A DNA stretch of 47,589 bases from a virus. Taxonomy: Duplodnaviria; Heunggongvirae; Uroviricota; Caudoviricetes. The DNA lies in IMG/VR virus record IMGVR_UViG_2706794673_000013; one strand, 5' to 3'. The notes under the pieces are model-generated. The model saw only the letters and a program-made list of their open reading frames with translations, was not told where the DNA came from and made no database searches. The stretch's first letter is position 1. The number at the start of each line of letters is the position of its first letter. Positions 1,553 to 18,193 of this stretch are shown here, one piece after another. The translations under genes were made by a program, and so were the position numbers.

Positions 1553-1741
1553 TCACGAGGACTGAAGTTTCTCGCAATTAAAATTTATCAGTTTTACTTT
1601 CTGCTCTCTGGAAACGCCTGCTTCTTTTTTACCTGAGAGCATTTTTTCGCATTCTGATTTCGTTAGTTTAGATTTTGAATATCTTGTCCAGTTAGTAGGA
1701 GTGCCACCTTCCTTTTCAATAGTGGCGGTAATTTTATACAT
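1553..1741 (-). CDS. Small hypothetical protein (YdaC-position)
   Basis: 62-aa ORF starting MYKITATIEKEGG; its ATG overlaps the TAA that would end full-length ralR (ATGTATAA arrangement). Confidence 0.5.
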   Translation of the reverse strand: MYKITATIEKEGGTPTNWTRYSKSKLTKSECEKMLSGKKEAGVSREQKVKLINFNCEKLQSS

Positions 1742-2793: not shown

Positions 2794-5386
2794 TTGCATA
2801 TTCCTTAGCCCAGCGGGGCAGTGATAACGTCTTAATAGCTGGCCATTCATCGGTATTGAGGCAGTCAGCCAGGGTTCGCAGATTGCGGTGATATTCCAGC
2901 TGACCTGCCAGTTTTGCTTCTTCGCCCATCATGAAAATTTCAACCGGATAACGTCCGCATTCAATAGTTGTGCTGGCAACCAGAAAAACGAAAGTTGGCT
3001 GCACTCCAAACTGTGCTTCATAACCGTCACTGTAGAATGCATCCTGAACGTGATAGCGGTAGTCGTAATAAGCGGTTTTGAATCGTTGAATATCCGCCGT
3101 AGTTTTCACGTCCATGATCCAGTGAAATTCAGGGATAATTTTGTCCGGACGGCACCGACACAAAATTGCTGTTTCAGGATCTTCCCAGTAAATTGATGAT
3201 TCAGCGTGTCCGGCGCTTTCAACAAGCCATTGCCCCAGCGGCAAAGCCATAACGCTCTGATACATGAGTTCAATTTTCCGGCCTTCTTCGGCAGTGATAA
3301 CCGTTTTTCCTGTGCTTGCGCATTCCCTCAGAAACGCTTTCTCTTCTTCTTTTCCGGAGTTTGTCCGGCGGTTAAATTCAGGTGCTACGATAAAGCGGTT
3401 ACTGAATTCTTCCGGCTCAAGTACCCGGCAGTGGAAAGCGGTTCCTAAATCGAGCGTTTTTGTCTTTGTGGTGTCCACGGGGGCATTTTTACGCCACAAA
3501 TACAGTGCCGGAGTATCAGCAATGTCATCGAGCTGAGACTTACTGACACCGGGACCCGCGTGGTAATTCTCATTCGAAATTCCGTAATAAATACCTGGCT
3601 CTATGTCTTCTACGATTACGGGATCTGCGACTTCGCCAGTTTCATCACTGCAATCGCGATGCGGATCGCTGCCAGCATTCTCATTGTGCGGATGTTCAGC
3701 GCCTTCCATTTCCTCCGGATCATTTTCCTTAGCTTCAACCTGACTCTCTTCATCGAATGTTTCCTGGTATGTTGCGTCGCCCATCACCGCACCACAGTCA
3801 GGGCAGTTATCCCCGCCAGTCTGGCCGCAGGCATTGCAGGCTATTTCCGGTTCCTGTTGCACTACTGGCTCAGGTTGATTCATATCCGGGCTGGTTTTTT
3901 CCGTTTCTGGCTGGTTCTGGTACACACAATCGCGAGTCTGGATCCCCTTTACCCATTTCGGATCGTTCGGGTCGCTAATTCCGTCAACAAATTCACCACG
4001 TGATGCAGCAAGCAATTTATCGGCATCGACAGGATTTTTTGATGGAATGTTTTTCCGGGCTTCATGGAGTTCTGCCCGCAGTTCCTGATATTTCGCATCA
4101 ACAGAATTTACCTGTGACTGAGCATCCAGCGGCTGCGTGTCCTGATGATGTTCAGTTGCGTCCGGTTCCATTGTTTCAGCCTCTCCCTGTTCAACTGCCG
4201 TTGTTCCAGATGGTTGCGGTTTTTCTTCATCATCCTGTTTTCCTTCTTCTGTTACTCGCTGCGGCATCGGGGCAGAGGAGCGACCGCAGGCAATATCCAC
4301 GATTTCCGGATCAGGGTTGGCATGATCGGTTTCAGTCAGTACTTTGTTCAGATATTCAGTGACGTGCGCGGGGATGACCTCGATCCCAATTGGTGCTTCT
4401 TTTACGGACGCAACCACGATGGCGCGGGAATAATCCAGCCCGCCAGGCATGGTGATGAATTTGTCGCGGAAAACAGAAAAGGGCGGTTTATTTTCAGCGA
4501 TAATTTCCTCAATGCGTTTAGCGTGTGCCGGATGAAGGTTATAGATGTCCAGATCCATTGAACGGGCCAGTACGCCAGTGGCTACGTCCCGCGCCAGTGA
4601 CGTCAGATCGTGTACGAAACCTTCGCCGCGATCGGTGAGGTTTCCGCCGCCAGCATTAGCACCGGAAGCCGTGCGAGTGATGTGTGAAACACGATTACCC
4701 TTCATCCACTCTTTTGTCAGCAGTCCTCGATCGGTGTAGTCAGCGTTCAGGTATGCTTCGAAAAAAGCAGTTATCAGTCCCAGGTTTGAATTACCAGGAT
4801 TAGGGAAAACTTTGTCAGTGTCACGAACCAGTTTGTGGAGTTCGCGAATTTCCAGCGGGTCGAGCAGGCTGGTTTTGTGGGAAACAGCCAGGGCAGTAAC
4901 AGCCGGTAGTTCTTCAGCCCGAGCAATGTGTAATGCCTGGAGTCCGTCGCGTGAAACGTGCGTTACCGGTTTTTCGCTGCCGTGTTGAGCAAGCCAACGA
5001 ATGGGCAGTTCCTGGCCAGAAATTGGGAGTAGCATATTCTCCTCAATCTCAGTCATGTCTTCGCCGTTGACGTTGGTATTGCCTTGATAGTGAGCGTTGT
5101 CTGGTGCTGCTCCCGGTTTTAGTTCCCATGTCATGGAGTCTTTGCTGAGTTGATAGCGTTCACTCCAGGTAAAATCGATCTCACCTTCAGCGGGCAGGTC
5201 ATTAACGACAGGAAAATTCGTGGCAACAGCTTTAAAATAGCTGCTCAGTTTTTTACCTGACTTAACGATCAGGTAGTCCAGAGTGGCACAGGTCGATTCA
5301 AAATCGTTGCTTGCCCACAGGACGACGTCAGGTTCACCGGATGATTTTTTCGCTTTCCGTAACAGGAAGAGTGGTTTTGTGCTCAT
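2786..5386 (-). CDS. recE: Exodeoxyribonuclease VIII (RecE)
   Basis: 866-aa ORF immediately upstream of recT on same strand; acidic/low-complexity middle region and C-terminal nuclease domain as in RecE. Confidence 0.9.
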
Positions 5387-11341: not shown

Positions 11342-11758
11342 ATGGCAAAAGTTTTTACACAGGAAGAGCGTGAAAAAATTAAGGAGCAGGTTGTTGAGTT
11401 GGTACGCCAGAGTGGGCGCGAGACGTTAAGGCAACTGGAGGCCAAGACAGGTGCGACAAGATATCTGATGAGCATTCTTGCCAGAGAGTTGGTTGCCAGT
11501 GGCGATGTATACAACTCTGGCTATGGGTTATTCCCGTCTGAACAGGCTCGTAAGGATTGGAAAAACGCCCGCAAAAAACTATCCAGGGCAAAGGTGAAAA
11601 AAACGGTTGTGGTTGATCCTGACCTTATCTGGTCATTACCAGACGGAGAAATACGCCGCTATGACAGGCGTCAGAACATAATCTGTCGCGAGTGCCGGAA
11701 GAGTGAAGTTATGAAACGTGTACTGGCATTTTATCAAGGAAATCTTCGGTATTTATAG
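11342..11758 (+). CDS. Hypothetical protein
   Basis: 138-aa ORF from ATG 11342 (MAKVFTQEEREKIKEQ...) with GGAGG SD; basic C-terminal half with a CxxC pair (CRECRK). Confidence 0.5.
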   Translation: MAKVFTQEEREKIKEQVVELVRQSGRETLRQLEAKTGATRYLMSILARELVASGDVYNSGYGLFPSEQARKDWKNARKKLSRAKVKKTVVVDPDLIWSLPDGEIRRYDRRQNIICRECRKSEVMKRVLAFYQGNLRYL

Positions 11759-11957
11759 ACGTTACTAGATCAAAGAGCATTAGTTCATATGTAAATTGAC
11801 ATTTTTCTGGCACAGGGGAGAGCTAGCGTGGTTGTCCGCTTTGTGCCAATAGCGGACATTGCTGGCTCATGGTATGTTAGTTTAAGGAGGCAGGTTATGC
11901 CCTGTATTTCGCTGTGGTATAATAGTTGCGCAATTGATACAAGGGAGCGTTACATCG

Positions 11958-12919
11958 TGAAAATTGTTTTCGAGGTTAATGGAAAGAAAGTTCCACTAAA
12001 ATCTTTAAAATACATAAGCAAAAAAGATCAACTCGAAGTAATGAAAAACTGGTTCTTTGAAAACTTTGAAGATCCGGCAAATGCTTGTCCGTATGAAAGT
12101 AGAGAAGGTGGCTATGCTTACATATATGGCGGGCCGTATGATGCGAGCGAAGAACTACAATCCATCTTCGGTCAATATGTTAAATCTGAGTATATTGAGG
12201 AATTAGTAGATGAATTACAAACACAATGTTTTGACTGGTCTGGAAACTCAAATAATATAGATGATTGGTACGATGATGATATCTACGACGCTGTAACGTC
12301 TTCCGGTAATCCGTATTTAAAATTCATTGATAATATCGATAAAATAAAAAAACTTGCAAAAGATAAAACTGAACAACAGCAAAAAAACCACTTGCTTAGT
12401 TTGCTCTACACGAATGTTATTACAGCTTTGGAAACGCTTTATGTTGAGCTATTCATTAATTCTATAGAGAAAGATGATGTCTACATAGCCAATTGTATAG
12501 AAAAAGGTAAGACTGAATTTAAAGTAAGCAAAGATATTGCTGCGTTGCCTTTCAAGGGTGAACCCATCGAGAAAATTAGGGGAGAGCTAATCAGGTCAAT
12601 CAAGGAACACTTGATCAGTGCAAGCTGGCATAGCACTAAAAAGGTAATCGACCGCTATGAAGCTACATTCGATATAAAAGTACAAAAAGACTGTCCGATA
12701 GAAGCTATTGAATTGGCAACCCTCAATCGAAATCACTTAGTGCATCGTGGTGGAAAGGATAAAGAAGGGAACCTCGTAGTGATTACAGACCAGGATCTTG
12801 AAACGCTGATTGAAAATGCATCGAACCTGGCAATTATGCTCTACAACAGTTTAAATGTAGCAACGAATAAAACCACCATTTTGCAACCAGATGACAAACC
12901 GTTCATTCATGAATTTTAA
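11958..12919 (+). CDS. Hypothetical protein A of AT-rich cassette (candidate defence/abortive-infection protein)
   Basis: About 320 aa from GTG 11958 preceded by AAGGGAG (alternative ATG at about 12041); visibly AT-rich, K/N/I/D-rich codon usage unlike flanking phage genes; R-x4-H motif (RNHLVH) near C-terminus. Confidence 0.55.
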
Positions 12920-12934
12920 TAGCGCAGGTCATAC

Positions 12935-13936
12935 ATGGATATTCGCACACGAAAGACAAAATTTTTAGAGTCGTTAGATTCAACTGAAGTGATACGCAAA
13001 GCAGTAAGTCTCGCTATAGATTGCATTATTGATAATCATAATAGTAATGAAGATACCCCCTTAGTTATTACCAGCTATGATGATCTCTGTAGAATCCAGG
13101 TGCTAAATTATGTACAGGAGTTTTGCGAAGCTGCATTCCCTGATATGGATGAATATTACTTTAGTCCTAACATACTTCGCATCAACGGCAAGACTAGTGA
13201 AGAAGCTTGTATTAACTTAATTAAACTCTTAAGAAGTACAAAAGGCATGCTATTCTGGTCCGATGCCCCATCGTGGTTCGCTAGCCTCCCCGACGGATTA
13301 TTCCATGTTGTTAACATTGATCAAAAAATCGTTACTCGCGGCCTTAATAAGAAAAACTCTAAGCCGACAATAATCAATAAAGATTACAGTGTAGATACAC
13401 TACTATCAGAGCTATTTTTGAATGGCGCACACATGGAGCAACCCAACGTACACAACGTTTCTGAGGGAAACATGAAGTTCTATGATGAATGCCATGCTGG
13501 ATTAATCAGACCAATACCCGCTCCAATAGGCGCGTCATACGATGAAGAGATCACAATTAATTCTCCAGATTGGCAAAAGCTCGCGTGTGTAGCTTTACGC
13601 CGCTATCAGTCGAAGGAATGTCATGACGGAATGCAATGGGATACAACCGATCATGGTTGGACTGATGTAATCGCGTATCCATTCGTCGAAGAAATACAAT
13701 CAATGGATAATAGTGGTTATCGACAATGTTTAGTTGGGCTGGTCACAATAAACAATTCAAATGCAAATTCTCCGTACCTATCTACCGTTTGGATACATCC
13801 ATTTTATCGCAGGAGAGGGTTATTAAGTAAGTTATGGCCAAAATTACAAGAGTTATATGGAAGTAACTTCGAAATTGAGCGACCTAATGAAAATATGAAA
13901 GCATTTCTGAAAAGTGCGAAACACGCAGATTACTAA
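12935..13936 (+). CDS. Hypothetical protein B of AT-rich cassette (possible GNAT-like C-terminal domain)
   Basis: 333-aa ORF 15 nt downstream of protein A, same strand and same AT-rich composition; C-terminal segment CLVGLVTINN...VWIHPFYRRRGLLSKLW resembles the GNAT acetyl-CoA binding motif. Confidence 0.55.
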   Translation: MDIRTRKTKFLESLDSTEVIRKAVSLAIDCIIDNHNSNEDTPLVITSYDDLCRIQVLNYVQEFCEAAFPDMDEYYFSPNILRINGKTSEEACINLIKLLRSTKGMLFWSDAPSWFASLPDGLFHVVNIDQKIVTRGLNKKNSKPTIINKDYSVDTLLSELFLNGAHMEQPNVHNVSEGNMKFYDECHAGLIRPIPAPIGASYDEEITINSPDWQKLACVALRRYQSKECHDGMQWDTTDHGWTDVIAYPFVEEIQSMDNSGYRQCLVGLVTINNSNANSPYLSTVWIHPFYRRRGLLSKLWPKLQELYGSNFEIERPNENMKAFLKSAKHADY

Positions 13937-14113
13937 TTTATGAATCAGTCTGTGGAGTTAGGGTTGGTGTGAACAAGTAGGGTAAGAGCCTCAACGTGAT
14001 GCTATGCCGACCTGCTCCCTGAGAATTCACACAGAAGGCTGCTAGCAATGTCTGCAGATCGCTCAAAGCGGACTAAAATGTTGGCTTGTTTCTGACTTAG
14101 AGCATTTAAGGAA

Positions 14114-14338
14114 GTGCTGGTGGTGACTGGTTGTTGTGTTCCATTTCTACAGAATAAAATCACAGAAACTATACCCAATAGTTGTATTGAATCACTGACG
14201 AGACAGCCTCATATTTATCAGGACTGGTGTGCGTCTAATACAGGGGGTTGTCGTGCTGGTTCTCAAATGTGCGCTGGCTATTGCGGCTGTAATGGCAATT
14301 TATTGTCTTGCTGTTGTTCTTATGGAGCGGCTTTCTGA
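14114..14338 (+). CDS. Small Cys/Gly-rich ORF (possible peptide; may be non-coding)
   Basis: 74-aa GTG-initiated ORF ending ...CRAGSQMCAGYCGCNGNLLSCCCSYGAAF; poor SD spacing; no family recognised. Confidence 0.2.
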   Translation: MLVVTGCCVPFLQNKITETIPNSCIESLTRQPHIYQDWCASNTGGCRAGSQMCAGYCGCNGNLLSCCCSYGAAF

Positions 14339-14556
14339 TTGATTACATACTGGCTAGAAAAAAGGTGTTACCTTGGTTTATCTTTGTCCGGCAAGGTGCG
14401 CTCATTAATCTTAAGTAAATTTATTGCTCAAGTATTCAGATTACTTCTTATGGTTGAAGTCTCCTGTCAATGTAGAACCAATATATTTACAAAAATGAGA
14501 CCCGTCGGGGATAGCCCTGCCGGGTCTGACTGTTAAAGCATTTTTAATATGATCAT

Positions 14557-14895
14557 CTATTTTTTGGTGCTATAGACTTTTTCGCCCGAAAAGTCTGGAG
14601 CGACCCAAAAGTTAATATTAAACTGAGCATCATCGCTTAGTTCAACACGGTGCCAGTATTGTGGTGGGCTTGTTGCAAAAGCGCCAGCATTAATGACTAC
14701 TTTTATCTCCGGTTCAGTAGCATTCTCATCAGTAAAACCATAATATGTTACAGTGCCTTCCATTACGCACAACTGCCCAAAAACACCTGCTGCTGTATTA
14801 TGATGTGTTAATAACGCTGAAGGTACGTTCTCTTTTGTGAAGAACGGAGTTGAGCGTTTGATTACCCAATCTTTAGGAATTCTCTTGTGTGTCAT
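14557..14895 (-). CDS. YeaR-like DUF1971 protein (tellurite-resistance-associated family)
   Basis: 112-aa product from internal Met with GGAGGAGG SD; RSTPFF...GVFGQLCVMEGTVTYYGF...YWHRVELSDDAQFNINFWVAP resembles E. coli YeaR. Confidence 0.65.
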   Translation of the reverse strand: MTHKRIPKDWVIKRSTPFFTKENVPSALLTHHNTAAGVFGQLCVMEGTVTYYGFTDENATEPEIKVVINAGAFATSPPQYWHRVELSDDAQFNINFWVAPDFSGEKVYSTKK

Positions 14896-15720
14896 AACCA
14901 CCTCCTCCAAAACATGCATTAAAAATGCATCTTTTGGAGGGTTATGTCAAGCTGTTATGAAACACATAATTGATATGTTGATTAGAGGAGAAGATAGAAT
15001 AAATATGGTTGTTTTTCGTATAACTATTTGTTTTACTTTTAGTTTATGCATTCTGTGTGTTNNNNNNNNNNNNNNNNNNNNNNNNNNNNNNNNNNNNNNN
15101 NNNNNNNNNNNNNNNNNNNNNNNNNNNNNNNNNNNNNNNNNNNNNNNNNNNNNNNNNNNNNNNNNNNNNNNNNNNNNNNNNNNNNNNNNNNNNNNNNNNN
15201 NNNNNNNNNNNNNNNNNNNNNNNNNNNNNNNNNNNNNNNNNNNNNNNNNNNNNNNNNNNNNNNNNNNNNNNNNNNNNNNNNNNNNNNNNNNNNNNNNNNN
15301 NNNNNNNNNNNNNNNNNGAAATATGATTCCAGCAACTTATCATGTGGCTACTTTATAAAAATAATGCCCATATAAAACAACAAGCGAAAAGGATTACGGA
15401 TAAAAAAGGAGCGAGATGTGCGAACTTGTTATTTTCCATGTTTAACCACCTTAAATAATTGATGATGACGGGATGATNNNNNNNNNNNNNNNNNNNNNNN
15501 NNNNNNNNNNNNNNNNNNNNNNNNNNNNNNNNNNNNNNNNNNNNNNNNNNNNNNNNNNNNNNNNNNNNNNNNNNNNNNNNNNNNNNNNNNNNNNNNNNNN
15601 NNNNNNNNNNNNNNNNNNNNNNNNNNNNNNNNNNNNNNNNNNNNNNNNNNNNNNNNNNNNNNNNNNNNNNNNNNNNNNNNNNNNNNNNNNNNNNNNNNNN
15701 NNNNNNNNNNNNNNNNNNNN

Positions 15721-16320
15721 ATGGCGCATATACAACTGGTCAAACAAACCTCTTCTGGTTTACTTCTCCCGGCGACGCCGGAGAGTTGCGATTTTCTGCA
15801 TCAAATCAAAATAGGTGAGTGGATACACGCAGACTTTAAGCGTGTGCGTAACTACGCATTCCACAAGCGTTTTTTCAAACTCCTGCAACTGGGATTCGAT
15901 TACTGGACTCCGGTCGGTGGGGCGATCACGCCTCGCGAACGAGAACTGCTGTCTGGTTTCGTTGATTACCTGTGCGAATCAGTTGGTCGGGAACACACGC
16001 CAGCCCTGAGTGATGCCGCAGAGCAATACCTTAACACCGTTGCGACTCGTAGAACCCGGGATACGGCGTTGCTAAAGTCGTTTGAGGCTTTCCGCGAGTG
16101 GGTAACCATTCAGGCCGGATTTTACACCGAGCATATTTATCCGGACGGTAGCCGTGGGCGTCGGGCAAAATCCATCGCTTTTGCGAATATGGACGAAGTC
16201 GAGTTTCAGCAGGTTTATAAATCTGTACTGAATGTGCTGTGGAACTGGATTCTGTTCCGTAAATTCTCCTCTCAGGAGGAAGTTGAAAATGTGGCCGCAC
16301 AACTACTGGAGTTTGCGTAA
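15721..16320 (+). CDS. DUF1367-family lambdoid prophage protein
   Basis: 199-aa ORF beginning right at the edge of an N run (true start may lie in masked sequence); family commonly found in nin regions of lambdoid phages. Confidence 0.6.
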   Translation: MAHIQLVKQTSSGLLLPATPESCDFLHQIKIGEWIHADFKRVRNYAFHKRFFKLLQLGFDYWTPVGGAITPRERELLSGFVDYLCESVGREHTPALSDAAEQYLNTVATRRTRDTALLKSFEAFREWVTIQAGFYTEHIYPDGSRGRRAKSIAFANMDEVEFQQVYKSVLNVLWNWILFRKFSSQEEVENVAAQLLEFA

Positions 16321-17603: not shown

Positions 17604-18193
17604 GGCTGGTTTATTGTATGCCAAATGATTATTAAAAAGGTTGTGTTAATAACAAGATCCGAAATAATATGCCTGCATATTTTTATCTTGCTTATATTCT
17701 GCATATTGTGCATAGCAGGCTCATCCCTGCAATCAAAACTGTATGATGAGTATTTTTTGTTTTCCTTTTTTCCAGTCATCTGATGATGACCTGCTTCTTT
17801 TTAATCCGGATCGACATCAGTTTTTTAAGATAATTCCTGCGAGTTATATGCATAAATGCCACAAACTCCGCATTTTATGTGGTTGGGAGTTGCCGGGCGC
17901 GCAGTGAGTTTGCTAAGAAAACTCCTGCATGGTGAATCCCCCTGTGCGGTGGGGTGATACCATTAACCTTTTCTGTCGCCGACAGGTATCACGAACATTT
18001 TGTTCACCGGGAGGCACCCGGCACCATGCACTTCAATAGATTCTCTCCACATTATGGATATTCTTTCAGAATATCCCACGCAGACTTTGTGTAAATGTTA
18101 ACAAATGTGCGTTTTATTTGATCTGATTCGCTGTTTGAGCGTCCAAAACAACGGTATATATAATCCTTTACTATATGACATATGTGAGGAAAA

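Follow-up and report, generated by a model that had tools for sequence, protein, structure and literature searches.

What occupies the AT-rich island between the replication genes and the nin-like genes of an Escherichia coli prophage, and which of its open reading frames (ORFs) are genes? The question arises at positions 13,940-15,720 of IMG/VR virus record IMGVR_UViG_2706794673_000013 (Caudoviricetes), whose whole stretch of 47,589 nucleotides (nt) was analysed and is referred to here as the window. An initial annotation had seen accessory cargo in this interval: a 74-codon Cys/Gly-rich ORF, a convergent YeaR-like DUF1971 gene, and two masked blocks (runs of N) that could conceal more. Lambdoid 'morons' are autonomous promoter-gene-terminator cassettes expressed from the prophage, and the interval is read here as a three-part mosaic that forms the variable moron slot of a Rac/lambda-like E. 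coli prophage. Its DUF1971 gene is preceded by a strong predicted operator for NsrR, the nitric oxide (NO)-sensing repressor of the host, and is accompanied by two small hydrophobic ORFs of 29 and 28 codons, named p29 and p28. Taken jointly, the mosaic slot, p29/p28 and an NsrR-controlled DUF1971 moron form a model that we consider likely.

Mosaic structure of the slot and loss of hokD/sok

The slot is bounded on the left by the replication genes DUF1627 and DUF977 (ending at 11758) and on the right, from 15721, by the nin/Q-like genes DUF1367, YbcO/DUF1364 and DUF1133. GC content is 0.34-0.41 over 12001-15000 compared with ~0.5 in the flanks, in agreement with the AT-rich island first proposed. 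The reading as accessory cargo in a prophage slot is also supported. In a census of 240 loci, the usual gene order is p29(+) - hok(+) - p28(-) - DUF1367(+). At DUF1971 loci, the order is p29 - (hok absent or 3'-truncated) - DUF1971(-) - p28 - DUF1367.

In relatives, a hok promoter (TTGGCG-17-TAGAAT) directly follows the p29 stop codon. In the window, homology to hok-type loci stops at ~14357, between the -35 and -10 elements of this promoter, and resumes at ~15319, the right edge of the first masked block (mask 1). The -35 side of the promoter is the only hok remnant in the window; neither a tblastn match to hok nor a match to Sok (RF01794) at the Rfam gathering threshold was found there. The DUF1971 module has replaced hokD/sok at this locus, and the break lies inside the hok promoter. 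Neither this displacement, nor the NsrR operator, nor the second small ORF, in the 160-nt gap between the masks, had been picked up by the initial annotation.

Piece A (14050-14357) is the leading part of a conserved block usually found ahead of hokD/sok, with p29 as its probable coding content. Piece B (14358 to ~15319) is a self-contained, leftward DUF1971 moron substituted for hokD/sok. Piece C (~15319-15720) is conserved backbone carrying p28 on the minus strand and, ahead of DUF1367, a strong promoter and a leader, both conserved.

Another junction type occurs in E. coli strain 2900 (L138, 2789-2914), where a 3'-truncated Hok/Gef ORF of 41 amino acids (aa) abuts the DUF1971 stop codon. 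It indicates that the DNA joining hok to the DUF1971 module has been rearranged recurrently.

The DUF1971 gene and its predicted NsrR operator

The DUF1971 protein matches PF09313 over the entire profile (1-80 of 80; E = 2.6e-26; score 91.9 bits, cut-off 23.1) and phrog_34268 (E = 1.5e-78). Among structures in the PDB, it matches 3DL3 (E = 3.5e-59), 3BB6 (YeaR; E = 1.6e-24) and the N-terminal domain of 3M70 (E = 5.4e-11). The gene is convergent to the plus-strand ORFs, and its PGAP-type start, ATG 14895, is supported by the Shine-Dalgarno (SD) sequence and by the alignment to 3DL3 from residue 1. A convergent DUF1971 gene with a strong SD had thus been called correctly. The label 'YeaR-like' is right for the family, but the protein is closer to the Salmonella/Klebsiella/Vibrio orthologue group than to YeaR: its identity is 79-80% to the Salmonella, Klebsiella and Aliivibrio orthologues and 41% to K-12 YeaR. 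Further orthologues are found in Vibrio, Photobacterium and Shewanella. His32 and His82 do not vary across the aligned proteins, which were those of the prophage, Salmonella, Klebsiella, Aliivibrio and Vibrio together with K-12 YeaR.

The distribution of the gene is broad within E. coli. At a threshold of at least 90% identity, 457 of 5,426 complete E. coli genomes carry it, in every case at this position, which does not agree with the earlier view of an unusual function for a prophage slot. RefSeq names it either 'DUF1971' or 'TehB family'. Downstream of the gene, folding predicts an intrinsic terminator on the minus strand, in which the GC-rich stem of a hairpin (14498-14527) runs into CAUUUUUG, with a U-tract at 14490-14497. 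This 3' flank is common only to loci with the same junction type, such as L139. A search for the donor of the module found that nucleotide matches with Salmonella, Klebsiella and Vibrio end at the limits of the coding sequence, within which similarity to the Salmonella and Klebsiella genes is 73-75%.

An NsrR weight matrix was trained on 17 CFT073 sites from the literature (PMC5320621, Table 4), which themselves score 16-30.9 bits. The palindrome upstream of the DUF1971 gene would rank second among these training sites, behind the ytfE site alone (AAGATGCATTTAAAATGCATCTT), and two positions distinguish these two sequences. Elsewhere in the window no site exceeds 14.1 bits, and 50 shuffles yielded at most 20.4 bits. 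The operator is kept in 31/31 prophage copies at the same distance, with scores of 17-27 bits, despite allelic differences. Sites also precede the orthologues of Salmonella (AAGGTGTATATTAAATACACCTT, 27.7 bits) and Klebsiella (AAGTTGCATATTAAATGCAACTT, 30.3 bits) at the nhaB-dsbB locus.

A putative sigma-70 promoter, called by reading the sequence, overlaps the operator. Its -10 element, CATTTT, occupies operator positions 7-12, and is weak and not called by a consensus scan. The promoter of the Klebsiella orthologue (TTGACG-17-CATATT) has the same geometry, with the -10 again at operator positions 7-12. Because this putative -10 lies inside the operator, bound NsrR would occlude both this element and the transcription start.

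The genomic context of distant orthologues provides further evidence. In Vibrio parahaemolyticus (L247) and Aliivibrio fischeri (L244), the orthologue lies directly downstream of norV-norW, which encode an NO reductase (flavorubredoxin); only 40 nt separate it from these genes in V. parahaemolyticus, where a hemerythrin/YtfE-like gene is also nearby. The weight matrix finds no NsrR site before the Vibrio/Aliivibrio orthologues. Unlike that of the prophage gene, the NO link in Vibrionaceae is therefore one of operon context. The NsrR operator (prophage, Salmonella, Klebsiella) and the norVW context (Vibrionaceae) together give at least two distinct regulatory links to NO, and the adjacency to norV-norW supports a role of the DUF1971 family in NO stress. 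The connection to nitrosative stress first suggested for this gene is strengthened by both.

In the proposed mechanism, the DUF1971 gene would remain silent until NO inactivates NsrR. Derepression would then yield a small cupin-like protein of the STM1808 type, presumably a zinc protein with two conserved histidines, which would help the lysogen to tolerate nitrosative stress, and the intrinsic terminator would halt the transcript before p29. NsrR binding, NO induction and the biochemical role of the protein are all predicted from homology and site recognition. Within these bounds, the identification of the moron as an STM1808-type gene under NsrR control is a well-supported prediction. The features of the interval are collected in Table 1.

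Table 1. Features of the slot and two RNA genes elsewhere in the window (window positions)
Feature	Position	Strand	Remarks
RalA (RalR antitoxin sRNA)	1557-1735	+	Rfam gathering threshold, 225 bits
5' part of conserved, unannotated ~300-nt 'pre-hok' block (left piece)	14050..14357	+	81-93% identity to relatives
74-codon Cys/Gly-rich ORF	14114..14338	+	GTG start, 74 aa, C-terminal end CAGYCGCNGNLLSCCCSYGAAF
p29, 29-codon hydrophobic ORF	14253..14342	+	MLVLKCALAIAAVMAIYCLAVVLMERLSD; GTG start, SD 14243-14247
3' flank of DUF1971 module	14358..14556	-	contains predicted intrinsic terminator
DUF1971 gene, STM1808 / small 'TehB' type	14557..14895	-	112 aa, PF09313; SD GGAGGAGGTGG at 14898-14908
Predicted NsrR operator	14911..14933		11-1-11 palindrome AACATGCATTA-A-AAATGCATCTT, 26.5 bits, 15 nt upstream of ATG
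Putative sigma-70 promoter of DUF1971 gene	14922..14950	-	-35 TTGACA 14950..14945, 17 nt, -10 CATTTT 14927..14922
Mask 1	15062..15317		in relatives 245 nt, GC 0.265 (L001 5163-5407); distal end of DUF1971 module
p28, 28-codon hydrophobic ORF	15353..15439	-	MENNKFAHLAPFLSVILFACCFIWALFL; SD AAGGTGG, 15446-15452 (plus-strand numbering), 6 nt upstream
Mask 2	15478..15720	+	in relatives 242 nt, GC 0.339 (L001 5568-5809); conserved DUF1367 leader
DUF1367 gene, first of nin-like backbone	15721..16320	+	PF07105 E = 6.4e-98, aligned 1-198 of 198
STnc100	17897-18083	+	Rfam gathering threshold, 86.6 bits; just downstream of DUF1133 gene

Small ORFs, masked blocks and neighbouring cargo

The pre-hok block opens with a hairpin, GTCTGCAGATCGCTCAAAGCGGAC (14050-14073). 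Copies with 81-93% identity occur in phages Tritos, Evi and mEp460 as well as in about one third of the 5,426 complete E. coli genomes, and the annotation of the block is always none. Its position is constant, with variable cargo on one side and hokD on the other. To compare reading frames, 126 copies of the block were drawn from IMG/VR and genomes. In 124/126 copies (24 nucleotide alleles), the p29 frame is uninterrupted and exactly 29 aa long, with synonymous/nonsynonymous counts of 18/24 and an omega of ~0.47, the best of three frames. Its SD reads GGGGG in the window and AGGAGG in most copies. The peptide, as read from its sequence, has a hydrophobic core of ~19-20 residues and one predicted membrane helix. 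It is kept intact both where hok has been lost, as in the window, and where its own leader is shortened (L139). Together, these data identify p29 as the probable coding content of the pre-hok block, a putative single-helix membrane peptide.

The p29 family is limited in its taxonomic range. A homologue on the Shigella plasmid pINV is 79% identical, has an ATG start and retains the SD; it lies ~300 nt upstream of icsP, adjoining a truncated hok leader, and occurs in 124 Shigella plasmids. On S. flexneri pWR100 (L014, 3001-3087), the intact p29 homologue is accompanied by the hok promoter and by the initial ~100 nt of the leader of hok, and this piece is a prophage relic within the long icsP upstream region. 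Some GenBank records label p29 a 'putative membrane protein', and a protein search with its 42-aa GenBank form returned relatives in Escherichia/Shigella only. A degenerate DNA scan of species-representative genomes gave four loci, one in Shigella and three on short gut/oral metagenome-assembled genome contigs. No profile in Pfam, PHROG or NCBIfam matches p29, and Qin and DLP12 of K-12 carry neither small-ORF block. The p29 peptide string had no match in a literature search, and the paper on hokW-sokW (PMC8621323) mentions no upstream ORF. A preprint on the Pas small RNA (sRNA) was set aside as a description of the slot, since it deals with lysis-region sRNAs instead.

The 74-codon ORF that had drawn attention to this region is present and open in the window, with the coordinates and end first reported, but it does not behave as a cargo gene. 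By itself, it is not beyond chance, given that the surrounding 7 kb contains 79 ORFs of at least 30 aa. In most of the 126 copies the frame is broken or re-started: the start is kept in only ~34, an in-frame stop occurs in 17, and the 5' part contains frameshifting indels, such as 14+1 nt in mEp460 and 6 nt plus a frameshifting 1 nt in KFu024. Synonymous/nonsynonymous counts are 9/33 and omega is ~1. The profile search suggested for a Cys-rich peptide gave no match in Pfam, PHROG or NCBIfam, and the 74-aa protein is absent among 15 billion predicted proteins. A Cys/Gly-rich peptide gene was therefore rejected: the ORF reads one base out of frame over p29, and its start, frame and selection are all unconserved. 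Its Cys/Gly richness arises because GCN, CTN, GTN and TGY codons are read out of frame.

The second small ORF, p28, lies in the gap between the masks; in hok-type prophages, it lies between hokD and DUF1367. It is exactly 28 codons long in 121/121 copies, which form two allele groups ~75% identical to each other. Its variable columns by codon position are 6/7/12, and its synonymous/nonsynonymous counts of 12/17 are the best of six frames. An overlapping plus-strand ORF of 9 codons varies between 9 and 12 codons and is less consistent. Like p29, the p28 peptide has a hydrophobic core of ~19-20 residues and one helix predicted from its sequence. It matched no family and is absent from the 15-billion protein collection, probably because it falls below the length limits of gene callers. 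The case for p28 as a gene is suggestive only. Both peptides look like single-pass inner-membrane peptides, and their translation and function are deduced from these patterns.

The two N-runs bordering p28 were placed correctly in the initial annotation; they are 256 and 243 nt long, lie 160 nt apart, and belong to 13 such runs in the window (~250-358 nt each). Their content was deduced from complete E. coli chromosomes that are 100% identical over the unmasked parts, such as NZ_CP084096, where the stretches expected under masks 1 and 2 are 2836349-2836593 and 2836754-2836995. In these identical relatives, the DUF1971-DUF1367 spacer is 813 nt long, has a GC content of 0.31 and contains no annotated gene. 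Mask 1 lies upstream of the DUF1971 promoter, and its right end matches the junction to the backbone (~15319). Its only ORF of at least 30 aa that does not read through from a flank has a TTG start and 35 codons, and other alleles have a 57-nt indel in this region. Most ORFs reaching the masked stretches have 38 aa or fewer. Longer frames enter from the flanks, namely one of 88 aa (GTG start) on the strand opposite the DUF1971 start and one of 67 aa (TTG start) that continues out of frame into DUF1367. An Rfam search of the recovered sequence with E values up to 1 returned only a chance match to mir-616 (22 bits, E = 0.13), outside both masks.

Within the mask 1 region of L001 (~5293-5302), in DNA of GC 0.27, the motif ACGATAAATA occurs. 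It resembles the high-affinity H-NS nucleation motif, TCGATAAATT, and this upstream region may be bound by H-NS.

In relatives, the mask 2 stretch contains an invariant promoter-like sequence, TTTACA-16-TATACT (L001 5724-5751, score 10/12), ~59-86 nt before the DUF1367 ATG (~window 15635-15662). The 3' ~110 nt of the region are nearly identical across loci that are otherwise ~78% diverged. The right end of the mask abuts the DUF1367 ATG exactly. The start of DUF1367, suspected to lie under the mask, is complete and outside it: RefSeq gives ATG 15721 in relatives, and the Pfam model aligns from position 1. Judged from the identical relatives, the masks probably hide an AT-rich spacer together with a conserved promoter and leader. 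This content differs from the further cargo, regulator or non-coding RNA (ncRNA) once envisaged there; the relatives have neither a regulator gene nor an Rfam RNA in these stretches.

The promoter-like sequence is enclosed by a 7-bp inverted repeat, GCCAGTT...AACTGGC (L001 5724-5809, ~window 15635-15720). Repeat and nearly invariant leader may form an operator or RNA element that controls the DUF1367-DUF1364-DUF1133 (Q-like) genes.

The remainder of the slot is filled by a two-gene cassette (11828-13936) between DUF977 and the studied interval. Its first gene encodes a 363-aa protein (phrog_17908) with a weak HEPN_RES_NTD1 match, and its second a 333-aa protein (phrog_16994) with a weak C-terminal GNAT match; a PADLOC scan of the cassette gave no match. 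The pair recurs in other prophages (SF-088, pMS20655A), where it precedes p29 and hokD. Alternative cargo in the same slot includes a restriction endonuclease, an FRG protein, DUF5677 and QueH, a variety that suggests a defence or cargo hotspot. At the Rfam gathering threshold, the whole window contains only RalA and STnc100, both outside the interval, and these mark the prophage as Rac-like.

Rival readings and relation to known systems

The coding interpretation of the two blocks has a serious rival, namely that they are conserved as cis-acting RNA or DNA and that the small ORFs are incidental and untranslated. Such elements could take part in hok/sok regulation, serve the early-right operon as a site of termination or antitermination, or be promoter/operator DNA. 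The leader upstream of p29 is indeed as conserved as the ORF itself (0.87-0.99 per 10-nt bin), yet the third-position bias and the best synonymous/nonsynonymous ratios fall in exactly the p29 and p28 frames. Divergence is too shallow for strong statistics on the ratio of nonsynonymous to synonymous rates, whereas the exact ORF lengths hold in nearly all copies of p29 and in every copy of p28. Pairing between the p29 SD and the 3' end of its ORF is possible, but no RNA covariation was found, and in the diverged pINV copy the SD is kept while the start alternates between GTG and ATG. RefSeq has no annotation of p29 or p28 in any locus examined, and the supplements of the Sakai ribosome profiling (Ribo-seq) study contain no such peptides; against these absences stands the persistence of p29 where hok is lost or the leader truncated. 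A purely cis-acting role is accordingly a possibility to be kept in mind, and on this balance we think it rather unlikely.

If the ORFs are translated, p29 and/or p28 could be toxins of new type I toxin-antitoxin modules, forming a membrane-toxin gene cluster with Hok for prophage maintenance or lysis timing. Hydrophobic single-helix peptides of 28-29 aa with strong SDs flanking hok fit this idea, but homology to a known toxin family (Hok, Ldr, Ibs, TisB, ShoB, ZorO, DinQ) is lacking, with no Pfam, NCBIfam or PHROG match even at E values up to 10. Weak promoter-like hexamers lie opposite the p29 3' end in hok-type loci (TTAACT-18-TAAAAT) and opposite p28 (TTATCA-17-AATAAT). However, neither a terminator-bounded antisense RNA nor an Rfam match nor covariation accompanies them, and in the window other DNA stands in place of the putative p29 antisense promoter, although every copy of this type retains an intact p29. 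Long-range sequestration of the SD is predicted for p29. Type I toxins typically have basic tails, whereas the C-terminus of p29 is acidic. Because p29 persists without the antisense-promoter DNA, and toxin homology and a matching RNA are lacking, small membrane peptides of unknown role are ranked above new type I toxins, which we consider improbable.

The initial picture, an island with a Cys/Gly-rich secreted or modified peptide and masks concealing a regulator or ncRNA, now appears hardly tenable. The 74-codon ORF does exist, but its frame is not conserved and the peptide part is already refuted. The letters under the masks are hidden in this genome, and the N-runs exceed the corresponding DNA in relatives by 12 nt; however, the genomes that are identical over the unmasked flanks have AT-rich DNA with no credible ORF or Rfam match, and 12 extra nt are too few for a gene.

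Several observations weigh against the model favoured here, the mosaic slot with p29/p28 and an NsrR-controlled moron. The transcription start of the DUF1971 gene is uncertain, owing to the weak -10 and to an alternative central TTTAAT/TATAAT located 21 nt from TTGACA. The CFT073 NsrR chromatin immunoprecipitation sequencing (ChIP-seq) tables do not list the operator at 14911-14933, and the literature searched contains neither an expression, ChIP or binding dataset on the prophage gene nor a description of its control by NsrR. The AT-rich DNA upstream of the gene could also be silenced by H-NS. The mask content is deduced from relatives, with the masked bases themselves unseen, and across the masks every 100%-identical genome lacks 12 nt (1,489 compared with 1,501 nt). 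None among the closest 40 genomes matches the N-run lengths exactly, which implies either that N-runs do not preserve length or that this genome has a small indel. For p29 and p28, the family is narrow, confined to Escherichia/Shigella with identities of at least 75-79%, which leaves a modest codon-position signal, with ~40 and ~25 variable columns. Neither ORF has a convincingly conserved promoter, and no antisense RNA or covariation was found at p29 or p28, with RNAalifold used for covariation in both blocks.

The slot, the gene and the finding are largely ordinary, and the DUF1971 gene is common and already annotated. The analysis makes four modest additions, namely the prediction of an NsrR-controlled STM1808-type moron, the displacement of hok/sok, a conserved DUF1367 promoter and two unannotated small hydrophobic ORFs. 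In the most novel version, which we regard as less likely than not, p29 and p28 would be new prophage membrane effectors (Hok-like toxins, Hok modulators, exclusion or lysis-timing peptides), and the prophage would carry an NsrR-controlled, NO-inducible fitness gene. It would then supply E. coli with a function that is chromosomally encoded in Salmonella and Klebsiella. If NsrR controls the gene, ~8% of sequenced E. coli would have a prophage-borne addition to their nitric-oxide stress regulon, a clear case of a phage moron wired to a host stress sensor; the Salmonella relative reportedly contributes to virulence. Both small ORFs are absent from K-12, the strain behind most E. coli small-protein discovery, and are well-defined candidates for small-protein or toxin studies. 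The Cys-rich peptide is removed as a lead, and the masks appear to hide nothing remarkable.

Comparison with known systems places each part of the slot. Prophage hok/sok loci, including hokD and hokW-sokW of Sp5 (PMC8621323), occupy the same position, with p29 upstream and p28 downstream. The window differs from them in having neither hok nor Sok, and p29 and p28 have no detectable similarity to Hok. The DUF1971 unit resembles lambdoid morons in its own putative promoter and terminator, its orientation opposite to the phage operon, its lower GC content and its variable presence at a fixed slot. It differs in its predicted control by a specific host stress repressor, NsrR, of which the literature searched gives no description for this gene.

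Within its family, the protein shares ~80% identity, aligned from residue 1, with the 'tellurite resistance protein B' of A. fischeri (PDB 3DL3) and the Vibrio orthologues. E. coli K-12 YeaR (yeaR-yoaG; PDB 3BB6) belongs to the same Pfam family and has the same fold, but its identity is much lower, as given above, and no yoaG partner stands beside the prophage gene. The yeaR gene reportedly needs NarL as well, and no convincing NarL site was seen at the prophage gene. The yeaR gene is an NsrR target induced 160-fold under nitrate (PMC5320621), and tehB homologues are found in predicted NsrR regulons (PMC1274295). The yeaR operator, AAATGGTATTTAAAATGCAAATT, lies ~63-85 nt from the ATG, compared with 15 nt for the prophage gene.

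The Salmonella orthologue at the nhaB-dsbB locus is presumably STM1808. STM1808 is reportedly an NsrR-repressed zinc protein that needs H32 and H82, and is said to be required for growth under nitrosative stress and for systemic infection. Unlike the prophage gene, the Salmonella and Klebsiella copies are chromosomal and lie between dsbB and ycgN. STM1808 is listed among the genes of the Salmonella NsrR regulon (PMC7082413). The prophage gene resembles it in 79% amino acid identity over the full length, in the retention of His32 and His82, and in a strong 11-1-11 NsrR palindrome just upstream, with the putative -10 at positions 7-12.

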